From positions 1-55,268 of the IMG/VR virus record IMGVR_UViG_3300025137_000047: a stretch of 55,268 nt of DNA. One strand, written 5' to 3'. A model generated the notes under the pieces. The model ran no database searches, was not told where the DNA came from, and saw nothing but the letters and a program-made list of their open reading frames with translations. Positions 3,354-26,581 of this stretch are shown here, piece after piece; positions within the stretch are counted from its first letter, which is position 1, and every line of letters starts with the position of its first letter. This stretch comes from a virus. Its lineage: Duplodnaviria > Caudoviricetes. The position numbers and the translations under genes are program-made.

Positions 3354-3532
3354 ATGACAAGAGTCTAAATGTCGATATCAATTTTGATGGTATCGAACAA
3401 GTCAAAAAGAAGTACAAGAAAATTAAAAAGTACATGAAGTCTAACCTATATCAGATTAAGGTTATAGACGGTACGGAGAAAGTAGTCTCCAACCTGATAA
3501 AGGAAAACGATAATGCAGAACTACTTGACTAA
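3350..3532 (+). CDS. Hypothetical Lys-rich protein
   Basis: ATGA overlap with the upstream ORF. Confidence 0.65.
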   Translation: MNDKSLNVDINFDGIEQVKKKYKKIKKYMKSNLYQIKVIDGTEKVVSNLIKENDNAELLD

Positions 3533-3553
3533 ATAATGTATGAGGTCTATAAT
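3525..3553 (+). promoter_or_regulatory. sigma70-type promoter with an overlapping late-promoter-like CTAAATA
   Basis: TTGACT(3525-3530)-17 nt-TATAAT(3548-3553); CTAAATA 3529-3535. Confidence 0.85.
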
Positions 3554-3561
3554 AGACCTGT

Positions 3562-3812
3562 CGTTCATCTCCTAATTTGGACTAAATTAGGACTCAATTA
3601 GGAGACGCAAGTAAGTCGCGGAACGGAGCCGTTCATCCTATGCTAGAAATACTATTCTATTCATCACTCACCTGTCAACAAGCTGATACAATCATGCTTA
3701 AGATGAAAGCAAATGAGAATATCTCAAATGCTTTTAAGGTAGAGTTGATTGAGGTCATGAAGGAATCAACACCTGAATGCTATCCATGGGACGCAAACGA
3801 CTAAAGGAACGG
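3562..3812 (+). ncRNA. Double glnA-type glutamine riboswitch-like RNA
   Basis: Two units CGTTCATC..P2..GACGCAA..GGAACG (3562-3625 and 3630-3811); lies just after a promoter and upstream of a DUF4278 gene. Confidence 0.8.
3640..3804 (+). CDS. 54-aa hypothetical protein nested in the riboswitch (MLEILFYSSLTCQQAD...ECYPWDAND)
   Basis: Translated by hand; GGAG at 3625-3628 upstream; too short for the ORF track. Confidence 0.7.
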   Translation: MLEILFYSSLTCQQADTIMLKMKANENISNAFKVELIEVMKESTPECYPWDAND

Positions 3813-3845
3813 ACCTAAAAATCCAACTACTTTAGGAGTAACAAC

Positions 3846-4013
3846 ATGAACACCCTTCAAATGGTAAAGCAGCAGATCAACAAAGTATCTGCACTTCACA
3901 ACGCACAAATTCTTCACACCTCATATCGTGGTGTTGAGTATAATACACGTTGTGTAGAAAACAAAGAGTCGCACGGTACATTCTGCTATCGTGGTCGTAC
4001 TTATACTAAGTGA
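3846..4013 (+). CDS. DUF4278-family small protein (related to GS inactivating factor IF17)
   Basis: 55 aa with two YRG motifs (SYRGVEY, CYRGRTY); strong AGGAG SD 3834-3838; downstream of glnA-type RNA. Confidence 0.85.
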   Translation: MNTLQMVKQQINKVSALHNAQILHTSYRGVEYNTRCVENKESHGTFCYRGRTYTK

Positions 4014-4031
4014 TTCATTAACTTACATTGC

Positions 4032-4060
4032 AGAGAGGATTAACTATCCTCTCTTTTTTT
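4032..4060 (+). terminator. Rho-independent terminator
   Basis: AGAGAGGAT-TAACT-ATCCTCTCT followed by a T run. Confidence 0.9.
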
Positions 4061-26443: not shown

Positions 26444-26500
26444 TCATAAAAAGGTCCAAAAAAAATTCTGGTAAAAAATTCATCCCAGACCTTTTTGTGA
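26444..26500 (+). repeat. Structured intergenic element, copy 1
   Basis: AAAAAGGTC..A-tract..TCTGG..TAAAAA..CCAGACCTTTTT; similar to 46820-46884. Confidence 0.7.
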
Positions 26501-26581
26501 GTGTGGCGGAATTGGTAGACGCACCAGACTTAAAATCTGTTGAGCATTATGCTCGTGGGGGTTCAAGTCCCCCCACTCGCA
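26497..26581 (+). tRNA. trnL: tRNA-Leu (UAA), intronless, CCA not encoded
   Basis: Acceptor GTGAGTG/CACTCGC, D arm GGCGGAATTGGTAGACGC, anticodon TAA 26531-26533, long variable arm GAGCA/TGCTC, T loop TTCAAGT. Confidence 0.96.

Follow-up and report, generated by a model that had tools for sequence, protein, structure and literature searches.

Conserved letters of glutamine-binding aptamers occur twice in one leader of a marine phage genome, and the question raised by this locus is how the two copies are wired together. The leader lies at positions 3562-3812 of the window, by which we mean the whole 55,268-nt stretch of DNA that was analysed (IMG/VR record IMGVR_UViG_3300025137_000047). The window comes from a T4-like marine cyanophage. 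Its region 3540-4020 matches 423 phage records, nearly all from Synechococcus or Prochlorococcus myoviruses, and both small open reading frames of the region, ORF1 and ORF2, are labelled as hypothetical proteins in the matching records. At the gathering threshold, Rfam gives no match at the 3562-3812 element. The sole match in the window at that threshold, at 26497-26581 (55.8 bits), is to a tRNA whose variable arm is long. From the patterns of conservation described below, this element is probably one RNA with two glutamine-aptamer cores at opposite ends of a shared 5-bp helix.

The features of the locus are collected in Table 1. All of the motifs named in a preliminary description of the window are found where it placed them, and AGTCG (3614-3618) is, as it stated, the exact reverse complement of CGACT (3798-3802). 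It also observed that neither unit has a P3 hairpin of its own, which agrees with the spacing of the motifs: 6 nt separate AGTA from GGAACG in the first unit, and 5 nt separate CGCAAA from AAAGGAACG in the second. The stretch GAACG-GAGC-CGTTC (3621-3634) is able to form a local 5-bp hairpin, another of its proposals. For a given 5-mer, roughly 0.2 complements are expected by chance at a distance of about 180 nt, which is not significant within one sequence. Because such a match is not beyond chance, the significance of the P3 helix rests on homologues.

Table 1. Sequence and structure features of the nested element and its transcription unit (window positions)
Feature	Position	Strand	Remark
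Promoter, sigma-70 type, TTGACT-17-TATAAT	3525-3553	+	11 of 12 consensus matches
CGTTC, first copy; outer P1, 5' strand (CGUUC)	3562-3566	+	Read from window; pairs with 3807-3811 (flip loci, L668 alignment, CGG-clade pairs)
P2a hairpin of outer aptamer	3568-3605	+	10 bp, 3568-3577 with 3596-3605; predicted fold
Outer linker CGC (3606-3608), A3609, E-loop 5' strand AGUA (3610-3613)	3606-3613	+	Conservation; roles from the accessible part of PMC6698751
AGTA	3610-3613	+	Read from window
AGTCG, then C3619; shared P3, 5' strand (AGUCG)	3614-3618	+	Read from window; covariation
GGAACG	3620-3625	+	Read from window
Inner P1' hairpin	3620-3634	+	GGAACG (pairs from 3621-3625), loop GAGC 3626-3629, CGUUC 3630-3634
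GAGC	3626-3629	+	Read from window
CGTTC, second copy	3630-3634	+	Read from window
P2', 5' strand UCCUAUG	3636-3642	+	Pairs with 3785-3791; holds ORF1 start codon 3640-3642
ORF1, 54 codons	3640-3804	+	phrog_504 (E 6.6e-29); wholly within P2'/P3
P2', 3' strand (3785-3791), inner linker CGC (3792-3794), AAA (3795-3797)	3785-3797	+	Inside last ORF1 codons
CGACT; shared P3, 3' strand (CGACU)	3798-3802	+	Read from window; overlaps last ORF1 sense codon and first stop-codon base; covariation
OFF-state helix, CUAAAG (3801-3806) with CUUUAG (3830-3835)	3801-3838	+	Minimum-free-energy fold; encloses hairpin 3811-3813/3821-3823
AAAGGAACG	3803-3811	+	Read from window
E-loop 3' strand AAA (3803-3805), outer P1 3' strand GGAACG (3806-3811), G3812	3803-3812	+	
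ORF2 Shine-Dalgarno AGGAG	3834-3838	+	Overlaps OFF-state helix
ORF2, 55 codons	3846-4013	+	phrog_545 (E 1.8e-34); profile match
Intrinsic-terminator-like hairpin, then T run	4032-4054	+	Sequence

Homologues were gathered with the ORF1 protein as query (at least 80 loci) and with a pattern of the motifs (at least 120 loci). Further loci came from patterns requiring a substitution in the putative helix on its 5' side, and a second clade was gathered with the linker CGG replacing CGC. After removal of chance matches, the marine clade comprises at least 230 real loci. Both halves of the element are present in 224 of these, and 183, including the window, are distinct. Adding 103 loci of the CGG clade yields 286 distinct nested loci for counts of the long-range pairs. 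A 68-sequence alignment was enriched for variants, and because its sequences are related, cell counts taken from it overstate the number of independent events. Among the matches listed for a scan of position-4 variants there were chance matches and no real locus. Two of the 120 loci among the matches listed for a scan of cellular genome contigs are real (L538 and L582) and the rest are chance, a result that says nothing on the layout in cellular genomes. Within the CGG-linker clade (L628-L745), where GGAACG is followed by C, 51 distinct loci are compact nested doubles of about 110 nt (for example, L629, L631, L668 and L697) that hold no gene and reside upstream of small proteins with YRGV repeats.

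The two strands of the proposed P3 helix remain complementary in homologues and covary. All five pairs are kept in 181 of the 183 distinct marine loci, with a single C.A in the remaining two. Eleven haplotypes occur among these loci. Some single changes produce G.U pairs, and the double changes include AATCG/CGATT (14), AATCT/AGATT (2), ATTCG/CGAAT, AGTCA/TGACT and AGTTG/CAACT. When loci were selected solely for a change in the 5' strand (position 2 not G), a complementary 3' base was found in all 26 real loci that include the 3' half (25 A-U and one U-A). In the variant-enriched alignment, 99.4% of P3 cells are paired and three of the five pairs vary on both sides, compared with 27-52% of cells paired in controls where the partner is slid by one to three columns. 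For the whole 15-pair structure, none of 500 shuffles of this alignment matches the observed values.

These comparative data confirm AGTCG/CGACT as a real long-range helix across homologues. The position of CGACT within the last codons of ORF1 could suggest that it is kept for the end of this gene, that AGTCG is kept for an unrelated reason, and that their complementarity is an accident of the kind that one 5-mer match at such a distance permits. This explanation has next to no probability, given that 26 of 26 changes are complementary, G-C to U-A transversions included, and that compact relatives without an internal ORF keep the same helix.

Some relatives (for example, L158, L538, L629 and L631) belong to a class with a 9-nt P3, in which each strand carries three extra bases and position 8 covaries as G-C, U-A or A-U. 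GCCGAC is found on both strands of this class, giving the helix a near two-fold symmetry. It also contains two conserved C.A/A.C mismatches, one equidistant from each junction, which may be sites of tertiary contact.

How the P1 strands are connected is a separate matter. Both CGUUC strands are identical, as are both GGAACG strands, and the P1 strands are invariant in most loci. Most sequences are therefore uninformative, and the wiring rests on a minority of informative relatives. Two arrangements can be compared. In the first, outer P1 (3562-66/3807-11), the shared P3 and an inner permuted junction make up the pseudoknot-free fold that the preliminary description had suggested. In the second, two aptamers lie side by side, each with a local P1 (3562-66/3621-25 and 3630-34/3807-11), and AGUCG/CGACU is a pseudoknot between them, which corresponds to an 'interlocked' pair or to the published 'tandem' layout. 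Rfam alignments of the window and several relatives take the latter form, with scores of 21.9-37.9 bits, and the predicted energy of the fold without P3 is -72.6 kcal/mol versus -73.1 kcal/mol for the nested fold. A local P1 can also form first in transcription, and the side-by-side fold may exist as an intermediate.

Three independent kinds of evidence from homologues distinguish these arrangements. Four loci (L048, L060, L061 and L065) read GCAACG...CGTTG in the center of the element, while neither the first CGTTC nor the final GGAACG is altered. The pair at 3621-3634 is accordingly C-G in 4 and G-C in 179 of the 183 distinct loci. This flip within the hairpin disfavours local wiring because local P1 helices would acquire C.C and G.G mismatches. 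The second kind of evidence derives from a conserved long-range pair between the last base of the linker and the base after GGAACG, which the accessible part of PMC6698751 describes in a type-II riboswitch crystal structure and ascribes to both classes. In the nested arrangement the outer pair of this type is C:G in 183/183 marine loci and G:C in 103/103 loci of the CGG clade. The inner pair is C:G in 182/183 marine loci and, in the CGG clade, C:G in 92/103 and G:C in 2/103. Over both clades, 276 of 286 loci keep the inner pair, two of them with a double change, and 10 break it.

The base after the distal GGAACG is C in all 103 loci of the CGG clade, and in 92 the inner linker CGC is opposite a G that follows the inner GGAACG. 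Nested wiring satisfies both long-range pairs in 94 of these loci and side-by-side wiring in 2. If each aptamer closed its own P1 with the nearest GGAACG, mismatches would occur in 4/183 marine and 101/103 CGG-clade loci. As the third kind of evidence, RF01739 aligns the compact relative L668 in the nested form, with outer P1, P2 and AGU...ACU as a P3 that carries a 48-nt insert, and scores it at 46.8 bits (cut-off 35). Side-by-side wiring would also leave the sole AGUA and the sole GAA strands in different aptamers. Taken with the mismatches in the four flipped loci and the long-range pair counts, this makes side-by-side aptamers a very improbable account of the element. The homologues thus support nested, pseudoknot-free wiring. 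The earlier proposal of an 'interlocked or circularly permuted pair' survives in its second half, and its first half conflicts with the flipped hairpins and with the long-range pairs of the CGG clade. On comparative grounds, we regard the four helices, the two long-range pairs and the nested arrangement as shown.

Judged from its conserved letters, the outer unit belongs to the canonical type-I (glnA) aptamers and is built on a three-way junction. P1 closes this junction with invariant strands and shows no covariation itself, and CGTTCA is present upstream in every real locus that has enough upstream sequence. P2a, which follows CGUUCA directly, has many different stem sequences among homologues. 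Among 77 distinct loci with a short-type P2a, 59 have Watson-Crick matches at each of the first four pairs. The bases of the predicted long-range pair C3608:G3812 are retained without exception, with CGCA in 183/183 marine loci and G after the distal GGAACG in 183/183. The E-loop 3' strand is GAA in 135 of the 183 loci, AAA in 47, as in the window, and GAAA in one. The P3 helix of this core is not capped by a loop and opens into the inner core. Pocket nucleotides known from the accessible part of PMC6698751 are retained, which suggests L-glutamine as the putative ligand of this RNA.

At a relaxed threshold, RF01739 matches the window from 3560 to 3629 with 21.9 bits (cut-off 35) and takes the nearest GGAACG as P1. 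Single cyanophage aptamers with an ordinary P3 hairpin and the same junction letters obtain 42.7-51.4 bits from this model. The long insert in P3 is the likely cause of the low score. The P2a of the window (38 nt, with a small internal hairpin) also far exceeds the stems of 10-25 nt that most relatives have and lowers the score further.

The strands of the inner junction are encountered in the order P3 strand, C, GGAACG, short loop, CGUUCA, P2', CGC, AAA, P3 strand. Relative to the outer core this order is rotated, P1 being closed and P3 open, and on that ground the inner core is a circular permutation of the outer one in which every core nucleotide is retained and the E-loop is missing. One C and AAA replace the E-loop strands GAA and AGUA. 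The inner core keeps the pocket nucleotides C1:G40, G2:C39, linker G18/C19 and G41 of the accessible part of PMC6698751, and the sole inner P1' pair seen to vary is one that this source lists as not highly conserved. A long-range pair is predicted between C3794 and G3626. The loop of 3-4 nt has to close P1' and also supply G3626 for this tertiary pair, a steric demand that weighs against it. In the marine clade, all ten forms of the P1' loop start with G, including two with insertions.

This pattern of conservation is consistent with two pockets and cooperative binding. It is also possible, if somewhat doubtful, that the outer canonical core is the only one to bind glutamine and that the inner one is a relic of a duplicated aptamer, retained to provide P3 with a structured cap and ORF1 with its initiation region, with one pocket and no cooperativity. 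In favour of a relic, the inner unit lacks an E-loop and shows some damage: its long-range pair is broken in 10/286 loci, GGAG is missing from the P1' loop in four, and insertions of 64 and 99 nt separate GGAACG-GAG from CGTTC in L153 and L194. Against a relic, C1', G2', U3', the CGC linker and the G that follows GGAACG are nearly invariant, even at synonymous sites of ORF1, and the inner long-range pair has a double change to G:C in two loci. It also speaks against a relic that the type-II riboswitch, according to the accessible part of PMC6698751, binds glutamine with neither an E-loop nor P3. Apart from its insertion, L194 has the unusual long P2a of the window.

The inner core encloses a protein-coding gene. 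In 216 of 221 loci, ORF1 is uninterrupted and has its end at the P3 3' strand, and its variation in length is in-frame. Entropies at codon positions 1, 2 and 3 are 0.82, 0.56 and 1.10, the third position being the most variable. By these measures, ORF1 is a real gene. GGAG at 3625-3628 is likely to be its Shine-Dalgarno sequence. P2' covaries among homologues (UCCC/GGGA, UCCU/AGGA, CCCC/GGGG and UCUAUG/CAUAGA). Third-position entropy drops from 1.10 in the body of ORF1 to 0.35 in the last seven codons. All 68 aligned sequences share the same letters at the equivalents of window positions 3790, 3792, 3793 and 3795, and the ORF1-end letters that contribute to P2', the linker or P3 are either invariant or covarying. 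The last codons of ORF1 are therefore constrained by RNA structure as well as by protein sequence. Because GGAG (3625-28), AUG (3640-42) and the stop codon (3802-04) all sit in pairs of the inner core or P3, sensor folding and ORF1 translation would be mutually exclusive.

The second gene appears to be the regulated target. ORF2 resembles Pfam family DUF4278 (PF14105; 22.9 bits, E 1.2e-4), with a score below the gathering value of 25.3. Ahead of it, an anti-Shine-Dalgarno helix competes for the region of the P3 3' strand. In homologues, 93% of the cells of this helix are paired, and 3803-3833 covaries (29 GC, 18 GU and 17 AU pairs). The OFF-state fold that contains it is the predicted minimum at -76.1 kcal/mol. 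The nested fold, at -73.1 kcal/mol, is 3.0 kcal/mol higher when tertiary and ligand energies are left uncounted.

The accessible part of PMC6212724 reports that the cyanobacterial glnA aptamer mostly precedes DUF4278/IF17 genes and postulates that glutamine melts an inhibitory duplex, thereby permitting initiation. By analogy, glutamine would stabilize the outer P1, P3 and E-loop and withdraw 3801-3806 from the anti-Shine-Dalgarno helix. The freed Shine-Dalgarno sequence would then turn on translation of the DUF4278-like ORF2, giving ON-switch control in the same direction as in the Synechocystis gifB leader. The inner core might also bind glutamine, and folding of the two cores would be coupled since both need the same P3. 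Because the ribosome binding site, start codon and stop codon of ORF1 all belong to the sensor, the arrangement could act as a toggle. When glutamine is low or ribosomes are translating ORF1, the sensor would be open, ORF1 would be made and ORF2 would be silent. When glutamine is high, the sensor would close, ORF1 initiation would be off and the IF17-like ORF2 would be made. This complete scheme, with both cores binding glutamine, cooperativity through the shared P3 and a glutamine toggle between ORF1 and ORF2, is put forward as a tentative proposal that could well be wrong.

The unit is bracketed by a promoter (3525-3553) and a terminator-like hairpin (4032-4054). Transcription is predicted to start a few nucleotides upstream of the outer P1 5' strand, and the hairpin is likely to be the 3' end of the unit. 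In many homologues the same TATAAT, within a small palindrome, precedes the first CGTTC. Relatives of the ORF1-ORF2 region are found in contigs of four marine RNA libraries (for example, at 3645-3995), where DNA carry-over is possible. Such contigs contain relatives across 3604-4015, and transcript starts, ends and strand are not readable from them. Their cover of both genes hints weakly at co-transcription. The absence of cover at 3500-3603 is uninformative because P2a is variable. One contig (run X3) fuses 3627 to 3787 without ORF1. It may represent a marine relative that has no enclosed gene, or an artefact of aligning motifs that are repeated. In ORF0-type loci such as L090 (see below), a GTA-N8-TAC motif resembling an NtcA box (for example, GTATCACATGTTAC) lies about 20-35 nt upstream of the -35 element. 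No box of this type was seen by eye at the corresponding place in the window, and the idea was dropped.

Several known RNAs share features with this element. Group I introns house ORFs in their peripheral loops, and the position of ORF1 is similar in that a protein gene occupies a peripheral loop of a structured RNA. The tandem glycine riboswitch has two like aptamers in series that serve one expression platform and are coupled in folding through tertiary contacts. In the cyanophage element, by comparison, the cores are joined by a shared Watson-Crick helix.

The closest counterpart is the glutamine-I riboswitch (RF01739), represented in the accessible part of PMC6212724 by the Synechocystis gifB/IF17 leader and among cyanophages by the single aptamers L391, L399, L402 and L435. 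It has the same P1 (CGUUC/GAACG), P2 and linker CG(G/C)A, an E-loop of AGUA and GAA that flanks P3, and a long-range pair to the nucleotide just 3' of P1. Like the element here, it lies upstream of a DUF4278-like gene, with an inhibitory helix at the ribosome binding site that glutamine is expected to release. Unlike glutamine-I, the P3 described here spans about 180 nt, leads to a second core in place of a loop and has a protein gene inside, and the window falls under the Rfam cut-off (21.9 versus 35 bits).

Tandem glnA RNAs have been noted since 2010 (Weinberg 2010, PMC2864571), and Sherlock et al. 2022 (PMC9481103) counted 157 doublets and 4 triplets, which they called pseudo-cooperative. 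These leaders also contain two glutamine-aptamer cores. In the accessible parts of both papers they are described as separate units in series, unlike the nested cores here, which have one P3 and one E-loop; the single expression platform for ORF2 is a further difference from the published tandem riboswitches. Rfam reads the compact relatives L629, L631 and L697 as two adjacent matches, and these relatives are probably among the published doublets. For this reason, the published set probably includes the nested layout, and some 'tandem' glutamine riboswitches may really be nested.

Glutamine-II RNAs (the Downstream-peptide motif, RF01704) have the same pocket nucleotides and a CGC linker with a C:G long-range pair. 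Their pocket needs neither E-loop nor P3, which makes an inner pocket without an E-loop plausible (accessible part of PMC6698751). Their pseudoknot, formed by the 5' CGUUC with GGAACG in the loop of a second hairpin, has no equivalent in the window, which scores 16.4 bits on RF01704 against a cut-off of 33. Natural circular permutations listed in the accessible part of a 2023 article (PMC10085705) are those of hammerhead and twister ribozymes, 5S rRNA and group II introns, with no riboswitch aptamer named there. The inner core resembles these RNAs in having the helices and junction strands of the outer core in a rotated 5'-to-3' order. Unlike the listed examples, the permuted core sits within an unpermuted twin. 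A literature search on nested, permuted or phage glutamine riboswitches found no shared P3, permuted core or enclosed gene; Ames & Breaker 2011, Ren et al. 2015 and supplements lay outside its scope.

If both cores bind glutamine and fold cooperatively through the shared P3, the element would be a natural sensor with two sites, and its inner core would be the first riboswitch aptamer with a natural circular permutation. Riboswitches would then enter the short list of naturally circularly permuted RNAs. Models of dose response would need revision if the common doublet is a nested pair with one P3 and one E-loop. Annotation in the style of Rfam overlooks or misdraws hundreds of phage examples. 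Whole protein genes in sensor stems would link translation to metabolite sensing in a direct physical manner, and sensors of this kind could provide a handle on how cyanophages read the nitrogen status of their hosts. The compact natural forms of about 110 nt (types L631 and L668) offer constructs that are ready for ITC or structural work.

Some relatives enclose a second gene. In 39 distinct loci (L090, L095, L098, L106, L107, L133, L158 and others), P2a is not a hairpin and instead forms a long-range stem around ORF0, a reading frame of 65-68 codons (phrog_6471) that would be controlled by similar toggle logic. ORF0 and ORF1 were considered as paralogues, and this idea was dropped when BLASTP found no similarity between them. 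The stem around ORF0 covaries, with the letters of the stop codon changing in step with the strand adjacent to the start codon (UCUUAUG/CAUAAGA, UCUCAUG/CAUGAGA and UCCUAUG/CAUAGGA).
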